A stretch of 64,000 nucleotides of DNA from an uncultured Bacteroidota bacterium (GTDB lineage: Bacteria; Bacteroidota; Bacteroidia; Flavobacteriales; Flavobacteriaceae), in the NCBI GenBank assembly GCA_902598295.1, contig CACKBA010000002.1:8217-72216 (forward strand), in the 5' to 3' direction. The first letter of the stretch is position 1. Each line of letters opens with the position of its first letter. This document shows positions 1,078-49,774 of this stretch, piece after piece. Under the pieces are notes generated by a model that made no database searches, was not told the origin of the DNA, and was given only the letters and a program-made list of their open reading frames with translations. The translations under genes and the position numbers were made by a program.

Positions 1078-1089
1078 AACAGAATTGGA

Positions 1090-1380: not shown

Positions 1381-1394
1381 ACGAAATTAAAATT

Positions 1395-1441
1395 ATTATA
1401 ACACACCTTTTACCTGTCAAAGATATATAAATTATAACACA
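1395..1441. repeat. two copies of an 11-bp direct repeat, attataacaca (1395-1405 and 1431-1441)
   Basis: Read directly in the spacer between the sdhC stop and the integrase-like fragment. On the minus strand each copy reads tgtgttataat, which contains TATAAT. Confidence 0.6.
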
Positions 1442-1462
1442 TTAAAAATTATTTTATATTTT

Positions 1463-33714: not shown

Positions 33715-34365
33715 ATGAACAAGACGGTTACTTTATTTGGTGCTACAGGAATGATTGGTGGAGAGATTTTGAGGCTTTTGATTAATGATGATTATTATAA
33801 GGTTATAAATGTCATAGCAAGAGGAAAGATTGGCATTCAATCAAAAAAAATAAAAAACTACACAATCGATTTTACAAATGTTCAGGACTACAAAAAAATT
33901 ATAAAAAAGAATGATGTAGTGATTGCGTCAATAGGCACAACTCAATCAAAAGTGAACTTTGATAAGACTGAATATCGAAAAGTTGATTACGATATTCTTT
34001 TAAATATCGCTATGGCTTGTAAAACTAATTCAGCATCTTGTTTTTGTTTTGTTTCATCAGCTGGCGCAAATGAAAAGAGTAGAAACTTTTATTTAAAACT
34101 TAAAGGTGAAATTGAAAACTCAATTTTACAGCTCGGTTTAAAATCTTGCTTGATATTTAGGCCATCGCTTCTCTTGGGAAAAAGAAATGAGTTTAGATTC
34201 GGAGAAATGATAGCACAAAAATTTATGCCGTTAGTGTCTTTTTTAATGAGATCCGATTACAAACCTATTAAAGCAGTTGATGTCGCAAAGTCAATGTTAA
34301 TTGAATCAAAAAAAAGCATCAAAGGTCATAAAATATATCATTATTCTGAAATGATATCACAGTAG
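33715..34365 (+). CDS. NAD(P)-binding Rossmann-fold oxidoreductase (NmrA/HTATIP2-like)
   Basis: N-terminal VTLFGATGMIGGE (GxxGxxG). Confidence 0.75.
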   Translation: MNKTVTLFGATGMIGGEILRLLINDDYYKVINVIARGKIGIQSKKIKNYTIDFTNVQDYKKIIKKNDVVIASIGTTQSKVNFDKTEYRKVDYDILLNIAMACKTNSASCFCFVSSAGANEKSRNFYLKLKGEIENSILQLGLKSCLIFRPSLLLGKRNEFRFGEMIAQKFMPLVSFLMRSDYKPIKAVDVAKSMLIESKKSIKGHKIYHYSEMISQ

Positions 34366-34381
34366 ATTATCGGGTAAGTCT

Positions 34382-35206
34382 TTAGTTTTTCCCGCTAACA
34401 GTGTGATTGTTGTGACCGTAGTCCTCCGAAAGCCATTTTTTTATCCATTCTTTGGGATTGTATTCACTCTCTCTTAAGAAATGAAATTCTTGATATTTGC
34501 AATCATCCATATATATACTCTCATTTTCAGACAAACGGTTGAATTCATCGAGTTCCTCATTACTCATAAAAGATTTTTTGTCGTATTCTCCCCCTTTCAA
34601 AGTTGGCGGTTCTTCATCAGCATATAAAGCTTCAAAAGATACATACCCGACCTCTTCTCCTTCTTCGTTCTCACCTGACCATGAATCCTTAACTATCATT
34701 ATATATGGATCGTTTTCACAGATTTTCATAGAATTGATATGATCAATGATTTCAAATGAACCCATCATTAATGTGACATCTATATTGCCTGATTCATCAT
34801 CTTTGTAAAACTCAAAAACATCATCATCATAACTTCCTGAAGAAGCTATCTCTTTCTTAATATCCGCAATATCATTCTCATTATAGAGTCCTAATAAATC
34901 GGCATAAGTAATTTGCTCTAATCCTAACTCTGTGATATTAAATCTCTCTTCACTATTTTCTGATGAGTCCAAAAACCGGTTGATGAATTCTACTTCACTA
35001 ATGATTTCAATATTTAATTCCTCCGCTTTTTCTTTTTTGGAGGGTCCCATTTTATCTCCTGCTAACACAAATGATGTATTTTTGGAAATTGAAGATGATG
35101 CTTTTCCCCCTGCTTCATCAATTATGTCCTTTAATTCTTTTCTTGAAAATTTTTCAAAAACACCTGAAATGACAACTGCTTTATCTTTTAGACTCTCTTT
35201 ACTCAT
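34382..35206 (-). CDS. stand-alone BRCT-domain protein with an acidic C-terminal region of unknown fold
   Basis: N-terminus ..LKDKAVVISGVFEKFSRKELKDIIDEAGGKASSSISKNTSFVLAGDKMGPSKKEKAEELNIEIISEVEF.. closely follows the LigA-type BRCT pattern. The remaining ~190 aa are unrecognised. Confidence 0.8.
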   Translation of the reverse strand: MSKESLKDKAVVISGVFEKFSRKELKDIIDEAGGKASSSISKNTSFVLAGDKMGPSKKEKAEELNIEIISEVEFINRFLDSSENSEERFNITELGLEQITYADLLGLYNENDIADIKKEIASSGSYDDDVFEFYKDDESGNIDVTLMMGSFEIIDHINSMKICENDPYIMIVKDSWSGENEEGEEVGYVSFEALYADEEPPTLKGGEYDKKSFMSNEELDEFNRLSENESIYMDDCKYQEFHFLRESEYNPKEWIKKWLSEDYGHNNHTVSGKN

Positions 35207-35243
35207 GGATTTGGTTTTAATTTCTTATACAATTTACTAAAAA

Positions 35244-35251
35244 TAATTTTG
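35244..35251 (+). promoter_or_regulatory. Bacteroidota -7 box-like motif (TAnnTTTG) upstream of the AAA+ operon
   Basis: taattttg lies 68 nt upstream of the ATG at 35319. No convincing -33 TTG at proper spacing. Confidence 0.2.
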
Positions 35252-35318
35252 GATAATTAGTAGCAAATACTTGATGGTTTACCTCAATTTTCTTAATTTT
35301 TAAAAATATAATAATTAA

Positions 35319-36449
35319 ATGTCAATAGAATTTATAGAGTTTGGTAAAAAAGGAAACAGCGAAGAAATTAAAGAAATTTTATCTCACATATTTCAAAGAA
35401 ATAATGACTTAAGCAAAGAGAATAAAAGAGGAACCGCTGTTTGTATATGGGGTACACATGGATTAGGTAAGACCCAAATAGTAAGAGACTATGCAAGAGA
35501 AAAAAAATGGAAGTTTTCTTATATAGCCCCTGCACAATTTGAAGAGATGGGCGATTTGCATGGTATGCCTAATGTTGTTGACCCTGATGAAACAATTTCA
35601 GGTGATGAATATACTGTTTACAGTCCACCTGACTGGGTTCCAAGAGAAGATGGTCCAGGAATATTGTTGTTAGACGACATAAACAGAGCCGATGATAGAA
35701 TATTGAGAGGTTGTATGCAATTGTTGCAAAACTTTGAATTAACATCCTGGAAATTACCCCCAAAATGGCAGATTGTTGCTACTGCAAATCCTGAGGGCGG
35801 AGACTATTCAGTTACTCCAATGGATGGAGCAATGCTTACAAGAATGTTACACGCAACATTAAAGTTTGATGCCAAAATATGGGCTCAATGGGCCTATTCC
35901 GCCAATGTTGATGAAAGAGGAATTTCCTTTGTATTAACTTATCCCGAACTTGTAAACTCAGAAAGAACAACCCCTAGAAGTTTAACTCAGTTTTTTGAAC
36001 AAATTGCATCAATTGATGACCTAAAGGGAAACCTACAACTGGTTGAAGCTCTAGCTTTAAGTTCATTGGATGAGGTAACAGTTTCTTCATTCATCGCCTT
36101 TATTAACGATGAATTGACGCAACTTATAGATCCCGAAGAAATTCTAGATACTGAAGATTTTAAAAAAGTAGCAAAGAAAATTAAAGATATTTCTGTTGAT
36201 GACTCTGGGGCGAAGAGAGTAGATCGTTTGTCAACGATGTGTGCAAGATTGTACTTGAAGCTAATTTCTGACAATTACACTCAAGAGAAAAATCATGGAA
36301 AAAATTTAGTTGAATTCTTGCTTCTAGACACAATCCCAAATGACCTGCTCATGAGTTTATACATGGATTTACAAAAGCATGGTGGGGATGAAATTAAAGA
36401 AATGACAAGGGACAAAAAATTAGCAAGTAAACTATTATCAACCCTTTAA
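35319..36449 (+). CDS. MoxR/NorQ-like AAA+ ATPase (AAA_5 type)
   Basis: Walker A GTHGLGKT (aa 45-52), Walker B ILLLDDINRAD (aa 115-125), ..LLQNFEL.., sensor-1-like IVATANP. The C-terminal ~180 aa are helical and unassigned. Confidence 0.85.
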   Translation: MSIEFIEFGKKGNSEEIKEILSHIFQRNNDLSKENKRGTAVCIWGTHGLGKTQIVRDYAREKKWKFSYIAPAQFEEMGDLHGMPNVVDPDETISGDEYTVYSPPDWVPREDGPGILLLDDINRADDRILRGCMQLLQNFELTSWKLPPKWQIVATANPEGGDYSVTPMDGAMLTRMLHATLKFDAKIWAQWAYSANVDERGISFVLTYPELVNSERTTPRSLTQFFEQIASIDDLKGNLQLVEALALSSLDEVTVSSFIAFINDELTQLIDPEEILDTEDFKKVAKKIKDISVDDSGAKRVDRLSTMCARLYLKLISDNYTQEKNHGKNLVEFLLLDTIPNDLLMSLYMDLQKHGGDEIKEMTRDKKLASKLLSTL

Positions 36450-36459
36450 ATCAACAATT

Positions 36460-39099
36460 ATGCTTTCAAAAGACGAAAAACAAAACATTGCCAAAATAAA
36501 GAAACTGATTCGGACTCGTGATTTCGAAAAAATTGAAATGGGGATAGAATTGGTTAGGTCAATTAACAACCCCAAGATTTTTGATGAATTATTGGGCAAT
36601 GTTGAAATAGAAAGAGGAGTCAAATTTAAACATGATTGGAAAGGGGCTGGACCAGATGAACATTATTTTCAAACTGCAATTCTTGGTTTGTTAAACTTTT
36701 CTCCTAAAGGCTCAAAAGGATATGAAATAAGAGACTCCGTACAAAATCTAATTATAGAGGGTGAAATTAAAAGCGGGTATTCTTATGTTCGATCAAAAGT
36801 CTTCCTCAAATATTTATCAAATTTCTCCAATCTTAAAGTATTACGAGTTGAAAATTATAAAGAAATCGTTGGGTTTGAGGAAATTTATAATTTACCGATT
36901 GAAGATCTTGAACTGGATCGAGGTTATACTCTGCCAAATCATGAAAAGAAATGGGCTTTTAAAAAACTTAAAAGAATAATTTTTACCCTTCCCAATAGCA
37001 ACTCAGCTAGATATACTGACGATCCTGAAGAAAAAACTGAACCGAAAAAAATGCAGGGACTGGACTTTTTATCCAATTTAACAAGCCTAGAAACAGTAAA
37101 AATAAGTAGGGGGTTTGGTTTTTCAGGTGGATCTGATTTCTCCATTAAAGGGTTGAGTTTTTTGAAGAATTTAAAATTTCTCTATATGTGGGATTTAGGC
37201 ATTGATAATGTCAATGATTTAATCACTCTGGAAAATTTAAATTATGTGAAATTGCAGGAAAACAACCTTACTGATATTTCAGGACTCACTTCATCTACTA
37301 ATTTAGAGTTTATTGAGTTAAGAAGCTCAGATAATTTGTCCGATATTACTCCCTTAGGTAAATTAACAAATATCAAATTAATTGATGTTTCTTTTACTTC
37401 TGTAAAATCATTAGAAGGTTTAGAAAACTGCGCCAATCTTCACGGAATAAATTTGGAGCGTACTCTAGTTAAAAATCTTGATGGTTTAATTAATGCAAAA
37501 AATATTTATGGCGTAAACGCTGGTCATTGCAAAGACTTGGAGAATATAGAAGGAATAAAAAATTCATTGAAATTAAAAGAGATTATACTAAACGATTGTC
37601 CATCACTTCTGAATCTAAAAGGAATCGAAAACTGTAAGGATTTAAGAGCAATTACAGTTTCTAACAGTGGGATTTCGAATCTAGATTCTTTGATTAATTG
37701 TAAGAAAATATTTAGGAACAATAAGACAAAATGGGATGAAGAAACACCAGAGTGGGATGGCAATACTGCATCACAAAATGATCCTTTTCGCATGGTTGTG
37801 TCTCCAGAATTTCGTAAAGCTGTAGAAAAGGTTGGTTATGGAAATCTTTATGGAGCAAAGTATTTTAGTGAGGTTAGTAGGGATTATTATCCCAACAGAA
37901 GTTGGAGCGACCCAACTTTAAATGAATTTAAAATTAATGACTGTCCAAATCTAGAATCTGTTAAAGGCTTAAAAAATTCGGGGATTCAATTGCTTGTAAT
38001 CAATGGTTGTCCAAGCATTAAAAAAATTGACTATCTCGCTGAATTTCCGCTTTTGCAATGCTGTGATTTTACTGATTGTGCTAATCTTGAAAGTGTGGAG
38101 AGTTTATCTTCTCTCAGTTTGATTGATGTATTAATCTTAAAGAAATGTTATAAAGTCAAACCTAAACCAAGATTCTTATTAATGGACTCATTTGAAAAAA
38201 CTAATGAGTACTTATCAAAATTTAAAAAGAATATTTCAGAAGTCAAATTAGATTCTGAAGATAAAATTACATCTGAAAAACTAGAAAAGCTATTGCTTTC
38301 AGATGATTACAGTGATATTGAATTGGGTTTAGAATTGGCAAATTCTATTTCTGATAAAGATATCTTTGACTATTTGCTAGAAGGTGTTAAATTTTTAAAC
38401 AATAAAATTGTTACAAACAGCAAGTTTTTAGGAAATGACAAAACAAAAGAGTTTAGAGATTTTGCTCTCGAAGGTTTAATTTCGATCGCACCAGATTCAT
38501 GTAAGATTGCAAAGGAAATCAAAGCGAGCTTCAAAGAAAAAACACTGACTGGGTCTAATATAACTTCTCTCTTATGCGTATCAGGATTTAGTAATCTAGA
38601 AAAACTTAAGGTTACAAAGACTAATATTTCTACTGTCTCTGATTTATCTAGATTGAAAAATTTAAAAACCTTACTATTCAATGAGAATTCCGAGTTGAAA
38701 AACCTATCTGGAATTGAAGGTCTGGATAATCTGGAACTTCTTGGCATGAGAAATTGTAAAAGTCTTACAGACTTGAGTCATGTTTCAGGTTTTAAAAAGC
38801 TCTCAGGTGTTCAAGTTAATAATTGTGGTGTAAACTCAACAAATGGTTTAAAGGATCTTCCGTCATTGAAGAATGTTAACCTGAATGATAATCCTCAACT
38901 AGAAAACATAGATGAGATAGGTCAAATTGGTTCATTAGAAATTGTGACAATTAGTGGATGTCCAAACATTAAAAGTTTAGATTCATTAACAAAACTTGCC
39001 AATCTATCGTTTTTAAGGGTTGATAAACATAATCTTCAAAATACAGAAGGTATTTCTTCATTAATAAAACCTATAATGGAGGGACTAAGAAAAGAATAA
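36460..39099 (+). CDS. cytoplasmic leucine-rich-repeat protein built as two [helical module + LRR array] units
   Basis: No signal peptide. Long arrays of ~22-aa L..L..L.L..C..L..L.GL repeats. The helical module occurs at the N-terminus and again around nt 38250. Confidence 0.8.
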   Translation: MLSKDEKQNIAKIKKLIRTRDFEKIEMGIELVRSINNPKIFDELLGNVEIERGVKFKHDWKGAGPDEHYFQTAILGLLNFSPKGSKGYEIRDSVQNLIIEGEIKSGYSYVRSKVFLKYLSNFSNLKVLRVENYKEIVGFEEIYNLPIEDLELDRGYTLPNHEKKWAFKKLKRIIFTLPNSNSARYTDDPEEKTEPKKMQGLDFLSNLTSLETVKISRGFGFSGGSDFSIKGLSFLKNLKFLYMWDLGIDNVNDLITLENLNYVKLQENNLTDISGLTSSTNLEFIELRSSDNLSDITPLGKLTNIKLIDVSFTSVKSLEGLENCANLHGINLERTLVKNLDGLINAKNIYGVNAGHCKDLENIEGIKNSLKLKEIILNDCPSLLNLKGIENCKDLRAITVSNSGISNLDSLINCKKIFRNNKTKWDEETPEWDGNTASQNDPFRMVVSPEFRKAVEKVGYGNLYGAKYFSEVSRDYYPNRSWSDPTLNEFKINDCPNLESVKGLKNSGIQLLVINGCPSIKKIDYLAEFPLLQCCDFTDCANLESVESLSSLSLIDVLILKKCYKVKPKPRFLLMDSFEKTNEYLSKFKKNISEVKLDSEDKITSEKLEKLLLSDDYSDIELGLELANSISDKDIFDYLLEGVKFLNNKIVTNSKFLGNDKTKEFRDFALEGLISIAPDSCKIAKEIKASFKEKTLTGSNITSLLCVSGFSNLEKLKVTKTNISTVSDLSRLKNLKTLLFNENSELKNLSGIEGLDNLELLGMRNCKSLTDLSHVSGFKKLSGVQVNNCGVNSTNGLKDLPSLKNVNLNDNPQLENIDEIGQIGSLEIVTISGCPNIKSLDSLTKLANLSFLRVDKHNLQNTEGISSLIKPIMEGLRKE

Positions 39100-39105
39100 C
39101 TTATT

Positions 39106-40284
39106 TTGAGTAAGGACATTAACGAGGAAATATCAAGGTGTATAATCAAGATGCTTTTAAAAGAACCTTTTTATGCACATTTTTTAAGTGGTATAATTAG
39201 AGAAGTTACTGACAAAGTACCAACAGCAGCTGTCGGATTTAAAACAGGGAAAATTGCCTTATATGTAAATGAAAATTTCTTTCTAAAAGAATTGAAATCA
39301 GTGAATGAAAGAGTTGCTGTAATTAAACATGAAACACTTCATATAATATTCAAACACTTATTCAGAATGAAAACAAAAAGCTATGACAACCAGCTTTTTA
39401 ATGTTGCTGCTGATATTGTTGTTAACCAATTGATTGACCCTTGGAAACTACCGGACTCAGCAGTTACTTTAGATTCATTTCCTGAATTAAAACTTCCAAA
39501 GGATAAATCTGTGGAATGGTATTATGAAAATTTAAAACAAAATGCATCAAAAGATTCAGATTACAGAAAAAGATTAGACGAAATCTTTGAGAAAGGTACA
39601 CACAGTGATCATAGAATGTGGGGGGAAAATGAAAACTTTAGTATGGAAGTAGTGGAAACAGAGGTTGACAGAATGATTATTCAAGCAAGGGATAGAACAC
39701 CTATTAAAGACCATGGTACAATTCCACTAGGAATTAAATCCTTGATAAAAAATATTATTGAAAAACGAAATCCAAAAATAAATTGGAAAAGAGCCTTAAA
39801 ACTTTTTTCATCAACCAGCAGAAGAACAAGAGTTTATCATACGATGAAAAGATTTAGTAAAAGATTTGGAACCCGACCGGGTATCAAAATCAAAAGATTT
39901 CAAAAACTAGCTGTTGCAATTGACACTTCTGGTTCAATTAACATAGATGATTTTAATACTTTTTTTGGCGAAATACACAGCATGTGGAAATTTGGAGCAG
40001 AAGTAGATGTCCTTGAGTGTGATGCTGAGATTCAAAAGAAATATTCGTATAATGGGCGTATACCTGAATTCATTCATGGTGGTGGGGGAACTTCTTTTGA
40101 CCCAGTATTTGAACATATTAAAAAAAATAGATTTGAAAGATATGATGGTTGCATATATTTGACAGATGGATATGCACCTGAACCAAGAACAAAGCCACCT
40201 TGTAAAGTTTTTTGGTGTATAACAAAAGATGGTAAAATAGGCCCTCATCTTAAATTTGGAAGGGTTGTTAAAATGACTAATTAA
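39106..40284 (+). CDS. DUF2201-type protein: HExxH metallopeptidase-like N-domain plus VWA domain
   Basis: HETLH at aa 75-79 within ..AVIKHETLHIIFKHL... MIDAS-like ..LAVAIDTSGSI... Start is TTG 39106 or ATG 39151. Confidence 0.8.
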   Translation: MSKDINEEISRCIIKMLLKEPFYAHFLSGIIREVTDKVPTAAVGFKTGKIALYVNENFFLKELKSVNERVAVIKHETLHIIFKHLFRMKTKSYDNQLFNVAADIVVNQLIDPWKLPDSAVTLDSFPELKLPKDKSVEWYYENLKQNASKDSDYRKRLDEIFEKGTHSDHRMWGENENFSMEVVETEVDRMIIQARDRTPIKDHGTIPLGIKSLIKNIIEKRNPKINWKRALKLFSSTSRRTRVYHTMKRFSKRFGTRPGIKIKRFQKLAVAIDTSGSINIDDFNTFFGEIHSMWKFGAEVDVLECDAEIQKKYSYNGRIPEFIHGGGGTSFDPVFEHIKKNRFERYDGCIYLTDGYAPEPRTKPPCKVFWCITKDGKIGPHLKFGRVVKMTN

Positions 40285-40295
40285 AAATTTATTAT

Positions 40296-43200
40296 ATGAT
40301 TTATTTAGATGACAATGGTGTTACAGTGAAAGCTGTAAGTGGTGCCAAAGGAGCAAAAGCAGGTGAGGTTTATGAATTAAATGGAGAAAAATATTACGTA
40401 GCTGTAGATGCCTATGAATTACGAGCAATAATCAACAAAAGGAGTACTTCAAAAGGTAAAGATTTTCCACTAAACAGGATTGTTACTTCTAAACTCACCA
40501 CCATGAATAGTTTGTTTTCATACCAAAAAGACTTTAATGAAGATATTTCTAATTGGGACACAGGAAGAGTTAAGTCCATGTCCGAAATGTTTAAGTGTTG
40601 TGAAAAGTTCAACCAACCAATTGGGAATTGGGATGTTAGTAAAGTGACAGCTACAATGGAAATGTTTTATGGAGCCAAAGCATTCAATCAACCGATTGGG
40701 GACTGGAATACTGCAGTTTTAGATAATTTTTCAAATATGTTTGAAGGAGCTGAATCATTTAATCAACCAATTGAGAACTGGAATATGTCAAGGTGTGGTA
40801 ATATGCTGGGAATGTTCAAAGGGGCCTCATCTTTCAATCAATCTCTAAAAAACTGGAAAATTGGAAGTGGTCAACCTGGAAATGATTGGTTTTACAGCCC
40901 AAGAATGTTTTCTCTATTTGAAAATGCAAAAGCCTTTAACGGTGATTTGAGCGGATGGAGGCTTCGCGGTTCACTGACAGGACTTTTTAAAGGGGCCTCA
41001 TCTTTCAACCAACCCTTAGACAGCTGGGATGTTGAAAATGTTGATTCTATGAAATCCCTCTTTGAAGGAGCAGAATCATTCAATCAGGACATTTCTAATT
41101 GGAATACATCAAATGTAACATCCTTTGAAAACACATTTTATGGAGCTTCTTCTTTCAATCAAAATATTGGCAAATGGAATACATCAAAGGCCACTAATTT
41201 TTTAAACATGTTTAGAGAAGCATCAGCATTTAATCAAGATATTTCTGGGTGGGATGTTTCTAACGTAAAGAAAGTGAATGGATTATTTAGAGGAGCAAAA
41301 GCATTCAATCAAGATATAAGTTCATGGAAATTGAACGAAAGTATAAAGTTCTCTAAAACAATTTTTCAAGATGCTAGTTCTTTTGACATAGAGAACCACT
41401 CTCCGTTTAATGAAATAAAATCTACGACAAAAAGAGTGAGTGTTGCAACACAAGCCGCAAGTTCACTTGGAATTGAGTTAACAGCAGATGATAAAAAAAC
41501 TATTTCCAAGATTAAAAAATTATTAATATCAAGGGATTTAGAACAAATTGATTTGGGTGTGGAATTATTACTATCACTTGCTAAAACAGAGGTTTATGAA
41601 ACTCTTTTATTTGGATGCAAAATAATGGACGATGGAAAATTAGAAAGACCTAAAATGTTTACTGGCTCTGGTCCAGCTCAACCATTTTTAGACTATGCTT
41701 TATTAAACCTCATCGCAGATGCACCAAAGGGGGCCAAAGTGGACGAATCAATTGACAAGGAAAATATAACTTCTCTTGATTTTGACATGTTTGATTTTAA
41801 CTCTTTTGAGTATAGCACAACGATTCAAAATTTCGTTTCAGTTAGTAAATTTTATAATCTAAAATCTCTTTCAATTGATTTTAAAAAATTCAATATCAAA
41901 ACTGCTTGCTATGAAGATAGAGACTCTGAAAAAGAAAGTGGGATCGACCTTTCAAATGTGTTTTCTGGAAATAAGATTACTCATTTAAAAGTAAGAGAAG
42001 TCAAAGGCAGTCTTAATTGGTTAGAAAATTTCACGCAACTTCAAAAACTAGAATTCAGGAGTGCTCGATATTACAATCTTGATGATACTGATTGCTTTAA
42101 CAATTTAAAAAATTTGGAAGAATTAATATTCCTTGCTGAGCGATATCCAGATTTGGATTTTCTTTCAGAATGTAGTAAAATAAAAAAGCTTAAACTTAGT
42201 TGCATCAAACCGGGTTATGGAGAGGACGAATCTGGAAAATTAAAAAATATTGATTTTTTGGCAAATTTGGGTGAATTGGAGGATTTGAGAATTGACTCTA
42301 TAATTCCTGAAATGAATATTGACGGAATACATTCCTGTAAAAATTTAAAATATTTATCAATACCTATAGCTGGTGATGAAGATCTTTCTGGGTTGAAGAG
42401 TTGCAGTTCTCTTGAAACCTTGATTCTTAAATCAGGCTGGGATTCTCTGACGGGACGTGGATGGGGTCATAATTTTGATATATCAGGTAGAATTAATGAT
42501 TTACAAGGATTGAAAGATTTAAAAGATTTAAAAGATTTAAAAATTGAGAAATTTAATTTTTTCGGTTTGGGGAATGGGAACTTAATGAGTGATTTGAAAG
42601 CAAAAGAAAGTCAATCAAATGCAAGAGTTTCGGGATCAGACATCCGAATGATTGATTCTGTTATTAGATACAAAGCACTTCCTTTTACAGGCACACTTTT
42701 CTATAATTACAGACATCCATACAATCTCCGGACTCTTAATCGCAGATCTTCCGCTGATGATAATCATATTTTTAGTGAGTGTGAGATTGTTGAGGGTTTA
42801 AAAGATGGTTTATACAAAGAGTTCTATACAACAGGCAAACCAAAGTTTGAAGCTTTATATGAAAAAAATAAACTCAGTAAAATAACGGCATTCTACGACG
42901 CCAAGGGAGAAAATATTTTAAATAGTAATGGCGCTACGTTAAGTTACGACCTAGAGAGTGCTGACGTACATAGAATTGGTGGAGATTCAGGTGGTTTTTT
43001 AAAAAACAGCAAACCATTTAATGGATTTTGTTACTTAGAAATAGACACTCAATCATCATACCTTTCCAAAGACATTATATATGGGGAATCTCTATTTGAT
43101 ATTTTAAGAGATACGATTCAACAAGAATCTTTTGATCATCAAAATCCTGAATTAAGCAAGTTTGGTTTACTTCTACACAATAGGGATGCTAAGATTTCAG

Positions 43201-44657
43201 TTGTTTTAAAAATCAAGGATGGACTCATTTCAAATGATATTTTTCTTGCTGGCTCAAAAGAATTCTCTAAAATTACTGTTGAAGATGATTATGATTTTGA
43301 AAGAATGAATCATGAAGACAAATCAGCATTTGAAAAAATTGATGACAACAAAAAGCACAGGCTCCAAATTTATTTTCATAAACTCTCAAGTCTTGTTTTC
43401 AAGGCTGAATCATTACCCGAAACAGATGATGATGATATTGCGGTTTTATTAACTAAAGGAGTAAAACAAGGGAGGTTTAGCAATTCCACTTCACAGATGC
43501 ATGAGATTCCCATGTTTTACTATTTAAAATCCATCATTAATGGCGAAAAGATGTCAAAAAGACAACAAAATTTAAATAGACCTAAACTCTCAACAGAGGA
43601 TAAAAAAGCATTTTCAGAAATTAAAAAGCAGTTGACAAGCAGAGACTACAGCAAAATTGACGAGGCAATATCAAAGTTAAATGCCCTAAATCTCGATGAA
43701 TTATTTGAAACATTACTTGAGGGTTGTGAAATACCCGAATTTAATCCAAATGAAATTTATCCCAAGATTATCAGAAATAAATTCTTCACTGGATCTGGAC
43801 CAGCTCAACCAAGCTTAGATTATGCTCTTTTCTGTTTAATAGCAAATGCACCAACTGATGCAAATATTCACGATTCGCTTCGGTCTGAAAATATCACAGA
43901 TTTAAATGTAAAAACCTTTGGTCTTGCTCCAATTCCACCTGAGATTAAGGATGGTTTTATTCCGCTAGATAATTTAAAGCACTTGAATAATTTAATTATT
44001 GACCTTGAAATTTTTCAAGAACTAAATAAGGGTAGAGATAAGTGGTTTATAAACTCGAATATTAAGAAACTGGAGCTAACGGCAAAAGGAAGTCTAAAAT
44101 TTTTTAATAATCTAAAATCTTTAGAATATTTAGATATAGAGTTTGGATATTATGGTGATTCTATAAAAGACTATGAGGCTTTAGAAAGCTTAGAAAATCT
44201 GAAGGAGTTGAAGTTAACTATTGGGAATTATGATAAGATATCATTAGGATTTATTAAAAAGAACAAAAAACTTAAGAAACTCTATATTGATTTGAAAAAT
44301 AGTTGGGGAGATAGTCATCCAGTTGATGATTTGAGTGCAATTGAACATTTGAATGAGTTGGAAGAATTGCATGTTAAGGAAATATCAACAACAGATTTAA
44401 AGGCACTATCAAAATGTAAGGGTTTAAAAAAATTAACCCTTGAGTTCTATGAGTATGGGCGAGAAGATTTTTCATTTGATTACACCTTGTTGAACAATTG
44501 TCAATCTTTGGAATCTTTTTCAATCAATGGGTTGAATGACTATAAAATGAATGCTAGAATTCTTGATTTCAATTCATTAAGTGGTTTAAAAAACCTAAAG
44601 CATCTTTTAGTTGATAAAGTTTCCATTGTAAATACAAAATCAATTTTTTTAGATTAA
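40296..44657 (+). CDS. 1453-aa multidomain protein: BspA/DUF285-type repeats, two [helical module + LRR array] units, MORN/YwqK-like repeats
   Basis: No signal peptide. About 12 repeats of ..F.GA.SFNQ(P/D)I..W(D/N).S.V... lie between about 40480 and 41400. MORN-like ..EGLKDGLYKEFYTTGKPKFEALYEKNKLSKITAFYDAKGENI.. lies near 42780-42920. Confidence 0.8.
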   Translation: MIYLDDNGVTVKAVSGAKGAKAGEVYELNGEKYYVAVDAYELRAIINKRSTSKGKDFPLNRIVTSKLTTMNSLFSYQKDFNEDISNWDTGRVKSMSEMFKCCEKFNQPIGNWDVSKVTATMEMFYGAKAFNQPIGDWNTAVLDNFSNMFEGAESFNQPIENWNMSRCGNMLGMFKGASSFNQSLKNWKIGSGQPGNDWFYSPRMFSLFENAKAFNGDLSGWRLRGSLTGLFKGASSFNQPLDSWDVENVDSMKSLFEGAESFNQDISNWNTSNVTSFENTFYGASSFNQNIGKWNTSKATNFLNMFREASAFNQDISGWDVSNVKKVNGLFRGAKAFNQDISSWKLNESIKFSKTIFQDASSFDIENHSPFNEIKSTTKRVSVATQAASSLGIELTADDKKTISKIKKLLISRDLEQIDLGVELLLSLAKTEVYETLLFGCKIMDDGKLERPKMFTGSGPAQPFLDYALLNLIADAPKGAKVDESIDKENITSLDFDMFDFNSFEYSTTIQNFVSVSKFYNLKSLSIDFKKFNIKTACYEDRDSEKESGIDLSNVFSGNKITHLKVREVKGSLNWLENFTQLQKLEFRSARYYNLDDTDCFNNLKNLEELIFLAERYPDLDFLSECSKIKKLKLSCIKPGYGEDESGKLKNIDFLANLGELEDLRIDSIIPEMNIDGIHSCKNLKYLSIPIAGDEDLSGLKSCSSLETLILKSGWDSLTGRGWGHNFDISGRINDLQGLKDLKDLKDLKIEKFNFFGLGNGNLMSDLKAKESQSNARVSGSDIRMIDSVIRYKALPFTGTLFYNYRHPYNLRTLNRRSSADDNHIFSECEIVEGLKDGLYKEFYTTGKPKFEALYEKNKLSKITAFYDAKGENILNSNGATLSYDLESADVHRIGGDSGGFLKNSKPFNGFCYLEIDTQSSYLSKDIIYGESLFDILRDTIQQESFDHQNPELSKFGLLLHNRDAKISVVLKIKDGLISNDIFLAGSKEFSKITVEDDYDFERMNHEDKSAFEKIDDNKKHRLQIYFHKLSSLVFKAESLPETDDDDIAVLLTKGVKQGRFSNSTSQMHEIPMFYYLKSIINGEKMSKRQQNLNRPKLSTEDKKAFSEIKKQLTSRDYSKIDEAISKLNALNLDELFETLLEGCEIPEFNPNEIYPKIIRNKFFTGSGPAQPSLDYALFCLIANAPTDANIHDSLRSENITDLNVKTFGLAPIPPEIKDGFIPLDNLKHLNNLIIDLEIFQELNKGRDKWFINSNIKKLELTAKGSLKFFNNLKSLEYLDIEFGYYGDSIKDYEALESLENLKELKLTIGNYDKISLGFIKKNKKLKKLYIDLKNSWGDSHPVDDLSAIEHLNELEELHVKEISTTDLKALSKCKGLKKLTLEFYEYGREDFSFDYTLLNNCQSLESFSINGLNDYKMNARILDFNSLSGLKNLKHLLVDKVSIVNTKSIFLD
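42513..42539 (+). repeat. in-frame 9-bp tandem repeat (aaagattta x3), encoding part of LKDLKDLKDLK
   Basis: Read directly; three perfect copies. Confidence 0.9.
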
Positions 44658-44676
44658 GTTTAATATATTTACTTGA

Positions 44677-45270
44677 ATGGGCAGGAAAATTAAATTTAAC
44701 ATAGAAGGTCAAGTTCTTGAGTCAGGAATAACAAAAGTTGATAGAAAAAAACTATACGGTTCATCCAAAAAAATAGTAAAAGACAACAATGGAAATGAAT
44801 GTGTGATATCTGACCTTTATCTCGGTTCAAAAATATTACCAAGAGGTTCAATCTCCCAAGTTTTGATGAACAGCAAGGGGCATCATGTAAGCAGATCTGA
44901 GTTGGTTGGATTTAATCAGAATAATGAAAAGGTTGAAAAAGTTGAGTCCATTTTTAATTTGGAAAATAAATGCTTAAAAGTTGATATAGATGAGTTTTTA
45001 TCAGTCAATGTAAAGTCTATCTATCAATTAGATATTGATGACGAACAAATTGATAACTGGAAAAAGTATTTTACAAATGATGAGGTTTACTTTTTAGTCT
45101 TTAACTATAGGGCTGATTACGAGGGTGATGATGCATATATTATTTCTAATGGTGAACACTTTTTTATAACTGTGGGGAAAAAAAATGAATATACTTACTT
45201 AGAACAGGAAAACATCAATCTTGAAGAGGAGGAAGAAATTGATGATGAATTAGACTTTTCAATGCTTTAA
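44677..45270 (+). CDS. hypothetical protein with a strongly acidic C-terminal tail
   Basis: 197-aa ORF in the operon, ending ..NLEEEEEIDDELDFSML. No family recognised. Confidence 0.55.
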   Translation: MGRKIKFNIEGQVLESGITKVDRKKLYGSSKKIVKDNNGNECVISDLYLGSKILPRGSISQVLMNSKGHHVSRSELVGFNQNNEKVEKVESIFNLENKCLKVDIDEFLSVNVKSIYQLDIDDEQIDNWKKYFTNDEVYFLVFNYRADYEGDDAYIISNGEHFFITVGKKNEYTYLEQENINLEEEEEIDDELDFSML

Positions 45271-45272
45271 TT

Positions 45273-45980
45273 ATGCTTCGATACATTAGAATACAAGACA
45301 ACAATAAAAGAGACGCAGATATAAACTTTAAATCTGTGAGGACAGGTAATTTAATTTATTTAGCTCTTGAAAGTGGAGAGAAACCAATAAGTAAAAAAGT
45401 ACTTAAATCTACTGTCGAAAATAGCATTCCGCATTTAGTGAATAAATCCGAACCAACGGATGATGACTATGCAAAGTTTTCTGAAAAATTATTAAATGAT
45501 GACTCTGAAATGGATTTTGAACTATTTGGGAAATTTATAGGAAAAACGGATAAGATTTATACTGATAAGGAGTTAAACCCTGTTTACAATGTAACCATAA
45601 GTGAACAAATTTTAAATCCTCAAGGTGAGTTGGTGGAAGAAAAACAACAAAAACATATTAGCTCAAATATAACTGGTGAAGATATTGTTAAATGGACTGG
45701 TAAATATCTACCAAAGAAAAAATTATATAATAAAATTGTGTTGAGTTCAAAATACGAATTGAAACATGTCAACGGATTAACTTTTGACTTTTTGTTTACA
45801 ATTGCAAAAGATTTACATGACAAAGATTCTTTTATGATGCTTGGTGGAGGAAAAGGAAATGAACCTTTGGTTATGAATGAAAACGGGAAACCTTACAGGG
45901 CTTTTTTAGAGGGCAAAGTTAAAGGAAACTCTTATTGCTTAATTATGCACCTTTCAAATCAAGAATATAAAAACGTATGA
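45273..45980 (+). CDS. hypothetical protein
   Basis: 235-aa ORF starting 2 nt after the previous stop. Its stop overlaps the ligase start (ATGA). No family recognised. Confidence 0.55.
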   Translation: MLRYIRIQDNNKRDADINFKSVRTGNLIYLALESGEKPISKKVLKSTVENSIPHLVNKSEPTDDDYAKFSEKLLNDDSEMDFELFGKFIGKTDKIYTDKELNPVYNVTISEQILNPQGELVEEKQQKHISSNITGEDIVKWTGKYLPKKKLYNKIVLSSKYELKHVNGLTFDFLFTIAKDLHDKDSFMMLGGGKGNEPLVMNENGKPYRAFLEGKVKGNSYCLIMHLSNQEYKNV

Positions 45981-47326
45981 TTAACAATCAATTATCTGAA
46001 AAATTATTAAACTACAAGAACTCTGTAGCAAGTAAGTATATACCTGTACGAAGTGATCAAATATTATCCCGAGTTTTTGATTTGGATAAATATTACGTTT
46101 CCACAAAAATGGATGGACACCTCTGTTTTATCATAAAAGAAAAAAATGATATTAGTATTTTAAATCACAACAGCAATCCTTTTGAGAGGGAAGAACTGAT
46201 TAGTGAAATAGAAAAAATATTGAAAGATGATGATGGGGTTTTTGTTGGTGAAATATATTTTCATAAAGAAAATGAAAGAACTCGCTCATACAATTTAAAA
46301 AGAGAAATAAGTGAAAAAAACAGCGACATAAGAATTGCTCTTTTTGATGTTTTGAATCACAAAGGCAAGGAGTTTGTGGAGAATGATTGGAACACGAAAA
46401 AAGACTTACTTAAGTCACTTTTCCCAAGTAAAGGCAAGGTTTATTTTTTAGATGAAATTGAATTAACAAGCAGGAAAGATATTGAAGATGAGTTCAAAAC
46501 CAGAGTTGGAGATACCAAAGAGGAAGGACTAATTGTTAGGGGTCAAAATGGACCTGTCTTTAAAGTAAAAGAATATTTAAGTTTTGATATGGCTGTGCTG
46601 GGATATGTTAATGGATACCAAAACAATCCCTCTTTGATGAAGGAAATTTTACTTGGTGTTATGGTTGATAAGGACACCTACCTTGTTGTTGCAGTTGTTG
46701 CTAATGGATTTTCAGTGTCTGATAGAGAAAAACTTGCTATAGATTTTGAAAAACTCAAGGTGAATTCAGATGTGTTGCAAATGTCTAGTTCAAAGTTGCC
46801 CTTCACAATGATAGAACCAAAGATTATAGCTGAGGTTGAATCAACTGATATCATAAACTCTACATCAACAGGAGTTATTAAGAAACATATTTTGAAATTT
46901 GATAAAACTTATCAAGTTCAAAATTTTTCACCATCTGTAAGCCTTACTACACCAGTTTTTGTCAGATTTAGAGATGATAAAAAAATAAGTCAAAGTGATA
47001 TTGGTGTAAATCAAATAGAGAGAGTCATAGCTTTTGCTGAGGAAAAAGAAAATGAAAGTGATAAAAAGCCATCAAAGATTCTAAACAAAGAAGTTTATGT
47101 TAAGGAAACCAAAGGGTTAAAAATGGTGAAGAAATTCTTTATTTGGGAAACAAATTCAAATAGCACAGACTACCCAAAGTATGTTTATTATGGAATTGAT
47201 TATTCTCCATCAAGGGCTAGCAAACTAAATCGAGAAATTAAGGTTTCGGATGACAAGAAACAGATAGAAAAAATATTTCAAGATGAAATCGAGTCCAATG
47301 TAAAAAAAGGTTGGAATAAATTTTAA
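45977..47326 (+). CDS. ATP-dependent DNA ligase (NTase + OB core) with a WGR-like C-terminal extension
   Basis: Motif I VSTKMDGH (K44, codon 46106-46108), III FVGEIYF, IIIa ALFDVL, IV EGLIVRG, V VFKVKE, VI PVFVRFRDDKK. The tail ends ..VKKGWNKF. Confidence 0.85.
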   Translation: MINNQLSEKLLNYKNSVASKYIPVRSDQILSRVFDLDKYYVSTKMDGHLCFIIKEKNDISILNHNSNPFEREELISEIEKILKDDDGVFVGEIYFHKENERTRSYNLKREISEKNSDIRIALFDVLNHKGKEFVENDWNTKKDLLKSLFPSKGKVYFLDEIELTSRKDIEDEFKTRVGDTKEEGLIVRGQNGPVFKVKEYLSFDMAVLGYVNGYQNNPSLMKEILLGVMVDKDTYLVVAVVANGFSVSDREKLAIDFEKLKVNSDVLQMSSSKLPFTMIEPKIIAEVESTDIINSTSTGVIKKHILKFDKTYQVQNFSPSVSLTTPVFVRFRDDKKISQSDIGVNQIERVIAFAEEKENESDKKPSKILNKEVYVKETKGLKMVKKFFIWETNSNSTDYPKYVYYGIDYSPSRASKLNREIKVSDDKKQIEKIFQDEIESNVKKGWNKF

Positions 47327-47365
47327 AGATAGTCCCTTTACAGACGGCTATGGGGTAGTTCTTAA

Positions 47366-47467
47366 ATGCGAAAAGACAAAAAATCACTTGCTGAAACACA
47401 TCCAGAAATTGCTCAACAATGGCATTCAACAAAAAATGGGGATTTAACCCCTAATGATGTTTCGTAA
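47366..47467 (+). pseudogene. truncated zinc-ribbon (DUF4379-like) gene fragment
   Basis: The 33-aa ORF MRKDKKSLAETHPEIAQQWHSTKNGDLTPNDVS reproduces the ..LA..HPEL..EWH..KNG.L.P.DV.. repeat opening of that family. It stops before any Cys-rich part, 9 nt from the tRNA 3' end. Confidence 0.5.
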
Positions 47468-47476
47468 AATAAGAAG

Positions 47477-47550
47477 TGGAGAAGATGGGACTCGAACCCA
47501 CGACCTCTTGACTGCCAGTCAAGCGCTCTAGCCAGCTGAGCTACATCCCC
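47477..47550 (-). tRNA. tRNA-Ala (anticodon GGC)
   Basis: Hand-folded cloverleaf: GGGGATG TA GCTC AGCTGGCTA GAGC G CTTGA CTGGCAG TCAAG AGGTC GTGGG TTCGAGT CCCAT CTTCTCC A. It has U33, A37 and the G3:U70 Ala identity pair. There is one U6-U67 mismatch in the acceptor stem. CCA is not encoded. Confidence 0.9.
47511..47550. repeat. 40-bp direct repeat, copy 1 (tRNA-Ala positions 1-40, inside the intact gene)
   Basis: actgccagtcaagcgctctagccagctgagctacatcccc is identical to 49041-49080. Confidence 0.95.
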
Positions 47551-49040
47551 TAACAGATATAAATCCTTTTTTTGAGCCAAGCACTTTTATTACAATTTCC
47601 ATCATTTCGTCCACTGCACATTTTTACACCATTTTGTTGCATTTTTGGCCTTTTAAAAGTGTTCTTATCATTGCCCAAATCTACAAGTTTCTTTTGTGTT
47701 TTTGTGTAGTATTTTTTTAAATTAGTGATTATGAAGAAACTAACCTGAAAGATTTAGGCGGGGCTGAAGGTGCTGCATTTTAAAATGAAAAAATTCCTAA
47801 AAAATATTACTGGTTTAGAATATGCTGTTTGTATAATTGTACTTTCATTTTTAGTCAATGTTTTAGGTAATAAAAAAAACATCTATGGTGAAATAATAGT
47901 TGTCGAATATCCCACATTGACAGTCATAGGGGCTCTAAGTCTTGCTGTTTTATCATTATATATTACTTATTTCAGATGGTCTCGTTTAAAATTGGGTAAT
48001 GTTTTTTTTGTGTTTTTTTGCATTGCAAATTTAGTTGTAGGGTTTTACGCAGAGGTTTACGGAGATACGAGTTTTGATGATGCAATGAATTATTGGATGG
48101 AAAACCCTGGATCCAGTTATATACCTGTCGCTTTAGCACCTCTAACTCCTTTGGTGAATTTATTTAGTATTATTATGTATTTAATCTTGATTTTTAAAAA
48201 TGTCAAAGAAAATACAAGAGGAAATAAACAAGGGAAAAATAACTTTGACTCAAGTGTCTCTAGCCCTAATATGCCAGATACTGTTTCACCTAAATATGAT
48301 GAAAAATGGCTAAATGAGGAAAAAATAAGGCTTGATAAAGAGCTTAATGAGCCTATATTCAAAGACCTTAAAGCGGTTTTCGCTGACACGGAATTACCCA
48401 ATTCATTAAAAAATGATCTAAAGAATAATACAATTAATAAAAATCTCAAAAATGCACTTTTAAATACTAAAGCTGAAGATTTTCGAGAACTTGAAAAACT
48501 GATATGTAAGTTTTATCCAGATGAAGCAATGATATGGAATGATGAAGTTGAAGATTTTGTAAGTTACAAAGATATAAAGGGCTCCACATTATTTGTTGAC
48601 AATGATATGAATGTTGATGATTCTTTGGGTGCATTAGCTTTCTTGGGTAAAGTAAAGGGTGTAGAAAAAGAAAAGGTGGTATTTGAAATAAATACATTCA
48701 AAATTTTAGATGAAAAAAATCCACCCTTTACAGACATAAATGGTAAATGGTACAATAAATTTGGAAATACAATAATGAGATGTGTCTCTGAAAAGAAATT
48801 TGAAAAGGAACTCAATAGCTTACTTGAATTAAATAATATTCCAAAAAATTCAGCGAAGATTATTATTACAGAAGAAATGGCTGAAATCATTAATAAAAGT
48901 GGAGGAATTCCTGAAAATATGGAACCAATTAAATATTATGAGGGGGAAGGTTTTAATATTGAGTTACCACCAATTGAAAAGGGTAAACCAAAAATTATTG
49001 TTCTAAAAAAGTCAGTTTAGTGAAGATTATTAATTTTCTA
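47551..49040. mobile_element. putative remnant of a tRNA-targeted insertion (one ORF, no integrase)
   Basis: The segment is bracketed by the two 40-bp tRNA 5'-half repeats. The repeat ends at the anticodon loop. Confidence 0.35.
47785..49020 (+). CDS. hypothetical membrane protein (about 4 N-terminal TM helices plus a soluble Lys/Asn/Glu-rich C-domain)
   Basis: Long ORF. ATG at 47785 (MKKFLKN..) preferred over the GTG at 47770. No family recognised. Confidence 0.55.
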   Translation: MKKFLKNITGLEYAVCIIVLSFLVNVLGNKKNIYGEIIVVEYPTLTVIGALSLAVLSLYITYFRWSRLKLGNVFFVFFCIANLVVGFYAEVYGDTSFDDAMNYWMENPGSSYIPVALAPLTPLVNLFSIIMYLILIFKNVKENTRGNKQGKNNFDSSVSSPNMPDTVSPKYDEKWLNEEKIRLDKELNEPIFKDLKAVFADTELPNSLKNDLKNNTINKNLKNALLNTKAEDFRELEKLICKFYPDEAMIWNDEVEDFVSYKDIKGSTLFVDNDMNVDDSLGALAFLGKVKGVEKEKVVFEINTFKILDEKNPPFTDINGKWYNKFGNTIMRCVSEKKFEKELNSLLELNNIPKNSAKIIITEEMAEIINKSGGIPENMEPIKYYEGEGFNIELPPIEKGKPKIIVLKKSV

Positions 49041-49080
49041 ACTGCCAGTCAAGCGCTCTAGCCAGCTGAGCTACATCCCC
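49041..49080. repeat. 40-bp direct repeat, copy 2 (orphan tRNA-Ala 5' half)
   Basis: Identical to 47511-47550. No tRNA 3' half follows it. Confidence 0.95.
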
Positions 49081-49090
49081 ATTGTACAAA

Positions 49091-49774
49091 TCAATTAAAG
49101 AAAGTAATTATTTTTTTTAAGTCTTCCTCCTTTTTCAAATTGATTTTATTCTCTTTTCGAAACTTGGTGTAAGTTTTTTCATCAAACAATTTTAATGCAA
49201 TCATTTTTTTATGATTCTTGGGAACTTTATAATATTTTTTATTGAGATAAATAATATAATCTGACTTATCAATCCATTCGGGATCAGCAGTTTTGCCATA
49301 ACCAGAATTAGCAGTACTAGAAGATGCCTCGATTGGTTTTTTCAAATCTTTATTCATAAACTCATAAAGACTAATGTTTTCAAGTGTTAAACATTCACGG
49401 AGAATTATATAATTATTTTTCTCAATCCAATCCAATTCATGAAAGCTATATGTTTTGTTGCCAATAACTAAGTCAAAAGTATTGTCAATACCAATTTCAA
49501 ATATTTTTCCATCATTATTTTTGGTTTGAATTTTATGAGCATATAAATCCATTCTAAAATCTCCGATAATACTTTTACCTGAATCAAACACAATTTGTCC
49601 AGTAACAAAATTTTCATAAGCAAAAGGGGTTCCTTTTATATTGGTATCATAAAAAGATAACTTTTGAATTAATTGAAAATTTCCTGAGTTGTGGAAAGAA
49701 ATTAAATCTTGAGAAAAACCGCTAATTAGAAAAAAATAAAAAATTAAAATAATTTGACTATTAAAATAATTCAT
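49091..49774 (-). CDS. hypothetical secreted protein
   Basis: 227-aa ORF with a signal peptide. No family recognised. Confidence 0.55.
   Translation of the reverse strand: MNYFNSQIILIFYFFLISGFSQDLISFHNSGNFQLIQKLSFYDTNIKGTPFAYENFVTGQIVFDSGKSIIGDFRMDLYAHKIQTKNNDGKIFEIGIDNTFDLVIGNKTYSFHELDWIEKNNYIILRECLTLENISLYEFMNKDLKKPIEASSSTANSGYGKTADPEWIDKSDYIIYLNKKYYKVPKNHKKMIALKLFDEKTYTKFRKENKINLKKEEDLKKIITFFN

Follow-up and report, generated by a model that had tools for sequence, protein, structure and literature searches.

Introduction

The MoxR-vWA ternary conflict systems, described by Kaur, Burroughs, Iyer and Aravind in 2020 (PMC7159879) and extended in 2021 (PMC8195603), are enriched in multicellular prokaryotes and occur as patchy, island-like accessory elements. 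They combine adjacent genes for a MoxR AAA+ ATPase and a von Willebrand factor A (vWA) protein with a large, repeat-built third component (VMAP, iSTAND, iSTAND2 or TERNS3) predicted to recognize ligands, and the vWA protein bears a peptidase domain as a C-terminal effector joined via the vWA-L linker. A MoxR/metallopeptidase-vWA chaperone pair of phages (phrog_1297 and phrog_1314), consisting of an AAA_5 ATPase and a DUF2201_N/DUF2201 protein, was described by Iyer et al. 2021 (PMC7824862). We analyzed a 64,000-nucleotide stretch of DNA, here called the window, from an uncultured bacterium of the Flavobacteriaceae (assembly GCA_902598295.1, contig CACKBA010000002.1, positions 8,217 to 72,216 of the forward strand). 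It contains an operon in which the same two-gene core is combined with two large leucine-rich repeat (LRR) proteins, P0002 and P0004, each carrying two copies of a helical module of approximately 100 amino acids (aa). The module-LRR gene belongs to a tight mobile gene cluster with genes for a MoxR AAA+ ATPase and a vWA protein with an N-terminal HExxH metallopeptidase domain. With a probability of about 55%, we consider the cluster to be a variant, of LRR type, of the multi-component (ternary-like) MoxR-vWA conflict systems, in which the LRRs would be the variable arms and the module the constant cap and coupler.

Module and LRR cassettes

The operon consists of seven tightly packed plus-strand genes, P0001 to P0007, ending at 47326 (coordinates are window positions on the plus strand unless marked (-)). 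P0001 (35319..36449, 376 aa) is a MoxR-type AAA+ ATPase matching Pfam AAA_5 above the cut-off. P0003 (39106..40284, TTG start) is a metallopeptidase-vWA protein with DUF2201_N and DUF2201 domains (Pfam E 2.4e-17 and 1.1e-17). The two large LRR open reading frames (ORFs), P0002 (36460..39099, 879 aa) and P0004 (40296..44657, 1453 aa), lie on either side of the vWA gene and are spaced by 10-11 nt from the AAA+ and vWA genes in a single operon.

P0002, an LRR protein by translation and Pfam matches, comprises two cassettes. Module A (aa 1-97, 36460..36750; BLASTP matches to the other three modules at E 3e-8 to 5e-18) leads into LRR array A (aa 98-590, 36751..38229; Pfam LRR_4 and LRR_14, with regularly spaced strands in the AlphaFold2 (AF2) model), and module B (aa 596-695, 38245..38544; BLASTP and four-copy profile) leads into LRR array B (aa 696-879, 38545..39096; Pfam LRR_EndoS at 732-832, with strands in the AF2 model). 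P0004 begins with a DUF285/PARCEL repeat domain (aa 1-385, 40296..41450), identified by Pfam (DUF285, E 2e-126), by NCBIfam and by its 75-nt DNA repeat units; the tandem DUF285 repeats, each of ~25 aa, span aa ~60-365 (Pfam; NCBIfam TIGR02167). It continues with module C (aa 393-495, 41472..41780; BLASTP and four-copy profile), LRR array C (aa 496-800, 41781..42695; alignment to cassette A of P0002, E 2e-22), a variable, MORN-like middle region (aa 801-1096, 42696..43583) with one weak MORN_2 match (E 0.003-0.008, below the cut-off), module D (aa 1097-1203, 43584..43904; 48% identity to module C, E 7e-30) and LRR array D (aa 1204-1453, 43905..44654; Pfam LRR_14 at 1265-1385 and LRR_EndoS at 1341-1434). 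LRR_14 matched P0004 in two stretches, of which that in array D was the better.

All six module pairs were significant by BLASTP (26-48% identity, E 3e-8 to 7e-30), and the module-plus-LRR cassettes of P0002 and P0004 aligned as wholes (E 2e-22 to 9e-14). A profile built from the four copies matched only these four sites in the 1.24-Mb genome (E 1e-41 to 3e-45). No direct DNA repeat joining the modules was found, and the sole repeating DNA was that of the 75-nt DUF285 units. Every module preceded LRRs of 22-23 residues with the consensus xNLxxLxLxxCxxLxxLxGLxx, and matches to LRR_4, LRR_14, LRR_EndoS and LRR_R13L1-DRL21 identified the arrays as LRRs. A Trp/Tyr-rich insert at aa 420-484 of P0002 (window 37720-37911) interrupts array A and is kept in orthologues; it was disordered in the model, with a predicted local distance difference test score (pLDDT) <50 at aa 420-463.

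The AF2 model of whole P0002 (33 homologues in the alignment, pLDDT 86.2) showed two helical caps, each continuing into an LRR solenoid. In both caps, three helices were followed by a short beta-hairpin and two more helices, at 4-17, 22-35, 38-45, hairpin 49-57, 66-79 and 86-93 in module A, and at 599-612, 617-630, 633-639, hairpin 644-651, 663-676 and 682-690 in module B. The last module helix passed directly into the first LRR strand. Module C modelled alone (38-sequence alignment) reached a pLDDT of 93.9 and a predicted TM-score (pTM) of 0.84. A Foldseek search of this model against PDB returned nothing better than E 0.76; the nearest shapes were HEAT/TPR-like fragments (CAND1 at a query TM-score (TMq) of 0.52, Fis1 and the Pcf11 CID, all E>=0.76). 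Sequence-profile searches of PDB with the module gave only designed helical repeat proteins plus a weak plakophilin ARM match (E 0.14). There was no Pfam or NCBIfam model for it, and isolated modules run against Pfam at E<=10 gave chance matches only. With whole P0002, Foldseek found generic LRR structures only (InlA, plant LRR kinases, Roco LRR, SHOC2 and TLRs; E 1e-12). The strongest conserved motif, F-x-G-[ST]-G-P-A-Q-P-[FY]-L-[DN]-Y-A-L, lies in the loop and the initial turn of helix 4 and reads FTGSGPAQPFLDYAL in module C. A second motif, K-I-K-K-L-L-x-S-R-D-x-x-x-I-D-x-G-x-E-L-L, is N-terminal. In these models, the module is an undescribed helical domain predicted to fold autonomously. 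Its first three helices may form a HEAT-like unit, the beta-hairpin comes next, and a final helix pair opens with the strongest conserved motif; the whole caps the LRR solenoid at its N-terminal end.

Searching 1.84 billion cluster representatives with the four-copy profile yielded 415 proteins at E<=1e-3, of which 192 also passed E<=1e-10. Stand-alone short module proteins in this library were rejected as a class; they were frameshifted or truncated genes. Among 58 long family members starting with Met, 52 had at least two modules, and the module stood at the very N-terminus in 28. Pfam analysis of 48 members found LRR families in most, DUF285 in 18, MORN_2 in 4 and BRCT in 3, and these variable domains (DUF285, MORN-like, BRCT) occupy positions ahead of or between the cassettes. 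In a tree built from 39 modules of 18 loci, modules of different taxa clustered by their position in the protein, the first ones together and the second ones together, as seen for P0004 of the window with a homologue labelled Cryomorphaceae (genome G009) and for all Burkholderiales proteins. The tandem two-cassette layout is therefore old: it is the ancestral architecture of the family, to which a few later internal duplications were added.

We further examined the N-termini. The maximum 12-residue hydropathy within the first 45 aa was 0.6-0.7 in P0002 and P0004, and no signal-peptide-like hydrophobic h-region was present in any of the 29 long members with an N-terminal extension >40 aa. Pfam and NCBIfam scans detected no type IX secretion system (T9SS) C-terminal domain, LPXTG or lipobox in P0002 or P0004. 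By sequence criteria, family members are cytoplasmic.

These results bear out most of the initial annotation of this DNA, made from the sequence alone. It had placed four modules of about 100 aa, each ahead of an LRR array, within a few bases of the coordinates given here, had described the copies as diverged at the DNA level, and had derived both proteins from the old duplication of one module-plus-LRR cassette, which the cross-taxon tree supports. The lack of a signal peptide was correctly seen and extends to the long family members, and the structure prediction that it proposed gave confident helical caps leading into solenoids. Three features had escaped it, namely that two cassettes are the ancestral layout of the family, that P0004 has additional DUF285 and MORN-like parts, and that BRCT together with ligase or PARP genes is part of the conserved gene neighbourhood.

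Linkage to the MoxR and metallopeptidase-vWA genes

Genomes were scanned for the module at one per species, giving 19 module loci, 17 of them with usable flanks. Their hosts were Flavobacteriales, Cryomorphaceae, Chitinophagaceae, Pelagibacteraceae, Polynucleobacter, Comamonadaceae, other Burkholderiales and Myxococcota. In 15 of the 17 loci, a MoxR gene (50-93% identity) and/or a metallopeptidase-vWA gene (39-91%) adjoined the module gene within 10 kb. The remaining two were second copies; each shares a Polynucleobacter contig with the main locus, at a distance of 15-26 kb. The linkage was repeated on all three informative metagenome contigs and was retained across Bacteroidota, Alphaproteobacteria and Betaproteobacteria despite rearrangements of gene order and strand inversions. 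At the genus level, module and vWA gene co-occurred in the same 3 of 29 genomes, and the module was found in none of 400 sampled Bacteroidota genomes. The initial annotation had held that the NTPase is encoded separately, and it is, as a MoxR-type AAA+ protein with a vWA-peptidase partner. It had also named the finding that would undo its reading, namely a generic LRR N-cap occurring in unrelated contexts; the genome scans instead found a rare module tightly linked to MoxR and metallopeptidase-vWA genes.

The catalytic motifs of the core are intact. Walker A (GTHGLGKT) and Walker B (ILLLDD) of P0001 were conserved in 12 of 12 homologues checked, and HETLH and the metal-ion-dependent adhesion site (MIDAS) motif DTSGS of P0003 in 15 of 15 module-linked homologues. 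The C-terminus of P0003 is the vWA domain (DUF2201, aa 268-390 of 392), and its sole extra domain is the N-terminal metallopeptidase. P0003 matched phrog_1314 at E 2.9e-67.

One genome of the Flavobacteriaceae, G106, has a related system. At L046:2320-5787, directly upstream of MoxR (53% identity) and a DUF2201 vWA protein (34%) without HExxH, there are genes for two LRR proteins, one of 1156 aa with the architecture WGR-TPR-LRR-BRCT-LRR and one of 531 aa. The MoxR and DUF2201-vWA core, there combined with an LRR-BRCT-LRR protein, is shared with the window, and the G106 system differs in lacking the full module and in its N-terminal WGR-TPR domains. A correlation between intact HExxH and presence of the module was considered and rejected; only G106 lacked the motif, and five other module-free homologues retained HExxH.

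Among 2.9 million viral contigs, the module occurred in one, L052 (IMGVR_UViG_3300035206_000817). Its gene order is that of the Pelagibacteraceae locus L023, namely a module protein, MoxR, vWA and an 874-aa minus-strand gene. The contig is probably a bacterial island that was catalogued among the viruses. A phage origin of the module was rejected on the grounds of this single contig and its resemblance to a Pelagibacter island.

A further observation concerns locus L019, where a second module-LRR gene is preceded (13174-14485) by a ligase gene truncated to 293 aa and by a piece of another metallopeptidase-vWA gene, 117 aa long. This locus looks rearranged or partly duplicated.

Constant and variable parts

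Proteins of the window were aligned with those of a genus-mate, G014. Identity was 93% for MoxR, 91% for vWA, 87% for P0006, 80% for P0005, 74% for the ligase P0007, 73% for the BRCT protein, 72% for P0002, 55% for P0004 and 36% for the DUF285 part of P0004. Modules were always more conserved than the arrays that they cap (55-87% versus 37-79% identity). Against G014, the four comparisons of module with array gave 87 versus 54 (module C), 65 versus 55, 86 versus 58 (module A) and 86 versus 79%, and against G009 they gave 59 versus 37 and 55 versus 38%. Column entropy over 49 P0002 orthologues was 0.3-0.7 bits in modules and 0.8-1.4 bits in LRRs, and within the LRRs it was highest at the solvent-exposed x positions of the LxxLxLxx strand, on the concave face. 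In the P0004 orthologue of G014 (L014:7062-11763), the DUF285 domain (36% identity) and the cassette part (55%) lie in different reading frames, which is either a split gene or a frameshift in a single-cell assembly.

BRCT, ligase and PARP partners

The usual companions of the system are a BRCT domain and a DNA-end or NAD (nicotinamide adenine dinucleotide) enzyme, the latter being an ATP-dependent ligase trio, an NAD-ligase-like protein or a WGR-PARP protein. In the window, BRCT is a separate gene (34382..35206 (-), 274 aa, Pfam E 1.7e-12) divergent from the operon. In loci L017-L019, it is fused inside the module-LRR protein immediately ahead of the second module, a position that corresponds to the middle region of P0004.

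The trio follows P0004 in the operon. It consists of P0005 (44677..45270, 197 aa, with an acidic C-terminal tail), P0006 (45273..45980, 235 aa) and P0007 (45977..47326, 449 aa), an ATP-dependent DNA ligase with Pfam DNA_ligase_A_M and DNA_ligase_A_C domains. The trio accompanies the system in Flavobacteriales and Burkholderiales; the Burkholderiales copies are 24-41% identical and lie on the opposite strand. Across loci, identity ranged over 24-80% for P0005 and 30-87% for P0006, and the ATP-dependent ligase was found in 9 module loci. P0005 had no match in Pfam, PHROG, PADLOC or PDB; P0006 had no family match in Pfam or PHROG and no sequence relatives in PDB. The ligase carries a C-terminal tail of ~85 aa (window 46980-47323, P0007 aa ~335-449) that is conserved from Flavobacteriales to Burkholderiales, with the pattern VWTKETKG...VWKTNK...W.DYSPGRA.PLDREVK...NIKKGW and no Pfam or PDB sequence match. 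Assignment of this tail to the WGR domain was tried and was supported by neither the Pfam nor the PDB profile search.

Two other loci carry different enzymes in this place. L051 encodes, divergent to its module-LRR gene, an NAD-dependent-ligase-like protein with adenylation, OB and HhH domains (3-1910 (-)), and MoxR and DUF2201 lie downstream of the module-LRR gene; a second class of ligase thus takes the same position. L050 encodes a 497-aa protein with WGR, PARP_reg and PARP catalytic domains (252-1745 (-)), divergent from a two-module LRR gene (P0133) and occupying the position of the ligase trio, on a 4.8-kb contig too short to show MoxR/vWA. Using tblastn with a WGR-PARP protein and with a WGR domain, we found no match in the other loci.

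In two Chitinophagaceae genomes, SAM/NPHP3_N/NACHT-TPR STAND NTPase genes flank the module system (L025:13317-16379, L034:1618-5274 and L034:13574-18184). These flanking genes suggest a defence-island setting for the Chitinophagaceae loci.

Island setting and expression

The 13-kb island fills a variable slot beside a tRNA-Ala(GGC) gene (47476..47550 (-), found by ARAGORN), which marks the island border. We compared window positions 34365-49091 with a relative, G026 (L053), in which the same flanks, with 82-89% identity over the aligned parts, and the same tRNA-Ala(GGC) surround about 2 kb of DNA, versus the 13-kb system of the window. These 2 kb contain three small ORFs, of 209, 189 and 212 aa. 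Homology to the tRNA-proximal flank of G026 resumes only at window position 49041, past a 1.5-kb single-gene cassette. The wider neighbours of the operon in the window are glycoside hydrolases, sulfatases and a tRNA.

Near-identical DNA recurred in marine metagenomes, in at least 20 runs that belong to about 10 studies. The locus is therefore not an assembly artefact, as the initial annotation had maintained. Metatranscriptome contigs of >=95% identity from four marine runs covered parts of MoxR, P0002 (including module B), vWA, P0004, P0006 and the ligase. These short contigs lend weak support to expression of the operon.

Discussion

The system described here is rare, mobile and probably defence-like. 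We read it as a conflict island because its slot beside tRNA-Ala is variable, its distribution is patchy, STAND genes flank it in some genomes and its partner enzyme varies. In the mechanism that we propose, the fast-evolving LRR arrays would be recognition arms. The slowly evolving module would cap each arm and, as the most likely arrangement, couple it to the MoxR/vWA-peptidase machinery; this coupling may proceed via docking at the vWA MIDAS and possibly via proteolytic processing. BRCT together with the ligase or PARP part may form the output or repair side.

The comparison with the ternary systems supports a relationship and also sets limits to it. The adjacent MoxR AAA+ and vWA core, the large repeat-built third component, the peptidase domain on the vWA protein and the patchy island-like occurrence are all found here. 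Unlike in those systems, the third component is a two-cassette module-LRR protein, and searches of P0002 and P0004 gave no VMAP- or STAND-type match, only LRR, DUF285 and MORN (Pfam, NCBIfam, PADLOC). The peptidase is an N-terminal HExxH zincin instead of a C-terminal effector. The partners, BRCT with ligase or PARP, lie outside the described effector sets; BRCT is mentioned in neither PMC7159879 nor PMC8195603, and DNA ligase is not in PMC7159879. The hosts are streamlined unicellular plankton, namely marine Flavobacteriales with 1-1.6 Mb genomes, Pelagibacteraceae, Polynucleobacter and other planktonic lineages. Third component, effector position and host lifestyle all differ, and we therefore regard the system as a variant of the published ternary systems and not as a member.

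Two further families invite comparison. The phage chaperone pair has the same two-gene core, whereas its homologues are about 27-29% identical, lie among virion and replication genes and are not accompanied by module-LRR proteins. NLR/STAND receptors, including bacterial Avs/NACHT proteins, resemble the system in their cytoplasmic LRR arrays that evolve faster than the partner NTPase, and in some genomes the system shares an island with STAND genes. In contrast to these receptors, neither P0002 nor P0004 has a NACHT/NB-ARC domain by Pfam and NCBIfam, the NTPase comes from a gene of its own, of the MoxR AAA+ type, and the LRR arrays are paired, each with its own helical cap. The initial annotation had pictured intracellular LRR receptors akin to NLR/STAND sensors. 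The cytoplasmic location stands; the receptor role is a prediction from sequence, and the analogy is a conceptual one in a system that has no STAND NTPase. Our literature search found no publication describing the module, or MoxR/DUF2201 with LRR, BRCT and ligase.

Several points weigh against the interpretation as a conflict system. The proposed coupling of the module to MoxR/vWA is deduced from gene linkage, which co-transfer of one island could also produce. The metallopeptidase-vWA family extends beyond the module, to 6 of 400 Bacteroidota genomes (27-36% identity) and 250 phage records (about 27-29%) that have it without the module. The WGR-TPR-LRR-BRCT-LRR protein of G106, one of these six genomes, keeps only the first two module helices (motif type LLxSxDxxNVxxALEL), and the full module is therefore not required in every LRR-type system. 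None of the seven operon proteins is matched by a PADLOC model. High variability at concave positions is general to LRR proteins and is weak evidence for diversifying recognition. To our knowledge, DNA ligase is not a typical abortive-infection effector. The RNA contigs are of low depth and may include DNA carry-over.

The strongest rival, although unlikely in our view, is that the LRR proteins are clients, that is, substrates folded, assembled or matured by MoxR-vWA and the fused metallopeptidase, with the module as a handle or processing site; they would then be cytoplasmic scaffolds without an immune role. MoxR-vWA pairs are established chaperone/co-chaperone systems. For the same metallopeptidase-vWA pair in jumbo phages, a role in virion assembly that includes peptidolytic processing has been put forward (PMC7824862). 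The intact HExxH of every linked homologue and the placement of one conserved module ahead of each LRR array also fit this explanation. It leaves unexplained, however, the rapid divergence of the LRR genes beside a near-invariant core, the patchy distribution as a mobile island and the recurring BRCT, ligase or PARP partners. A more specific form of the conflict-system interpretation would have paired cytoplasmic LRR arms sensing an invader or damage, and a module-docked AAA+/vWA-peptidase switch controlling a BRCT-ligase/PARP response that is DNA-end- or NAD-dependent. This would be a previously unrecognised system; stated in such detail, the proposal is doubtful.

Less probable again is that the module is a purely structural N-terminal cap, associated with MoxR/vWA solely through inheritance and transfer of the island as a block. 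Its direct packing on the first LRR strands in the AF2 model would suit such a role, and G106 has a different helical region in an otherwise related system. Lineage-specific helical caps are common among LRR families, the internalin cap being an example. As in internalins, a helical cap is followed here by 22-residue LRRs, and InlA was among the best structural matches to the whole model; unlike theirs, the cap is larger (five helices and a hairpin) and unrelated in sequence. Against a passive role, conservation of the G-x-G-P-A-Q-P-[FY]-L-[DN]-Y-A-L motif among phyla goes far beyond the needs of a cap, the linkage to MoxR/vWA survives rearrangements and inversions in three bacterial groups, and the modules exceed the arrays in conservation.

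Export of P0002 and P0004 as internalin- or BspA-like proteins, secreted or displayed on the surface and with unrelated neighbours, is very improbable: internalins are among the best LRR matches (NCBIfam; Foldseek InlA) and DUF285/PARCEL repeats are annotated mostly in surface lipoproteins, but neither these two proteins nor 57 long members (28 module-first, 29 extended) have a signal peptide or hydrophobic N-terminus, P0002 and P0004 lack the T9SS, LPXTG and lipobox signals as well as the Ig-like inter-repeat domain and wall anchor of internalins, P0004 is without the lipobox or signal-like N-terminus of DUF285/PARCEL lipoproteins, and the genes share one closely spaced operon with cytoplasmic AAA+ and vWA proteins in a conserved neighbourhood.

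The module defines a compact, confidently folding family without a Pfam or NCBIfam model or a PDB fold match, and it is a specific marker of one gene system. Earlier discussion of the MoxR/metallopeptidase-vWA pair concerned phage assembly and, in multicellular bacteria, ternary conflict systems; here an LRR-based version is present in the most streamlined and abundant aquatic bacteria, including marine Flavobacteriales, Pelagibacteraceae and Polynucleobacter. The 13-kb island amounts to about 1% of such streamlined genomes. The split between constant module and variable LRRs offers a clear experimental handle, and with BRCT, ligase and PARP as recurrent partners, a connection of LRR sensing to DNA-end or NAD biochemistry can be tested directly. 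If the detailed proposal of a BRCT-ligase/PARP response under LRR control is true, the system would unite, in bacteria, innate-immune sensing by LRRs with a BRCT/WGR/PARP/ligase toolkit that is otherwise characteristic of DNA-damage signalling in eukaryotes.

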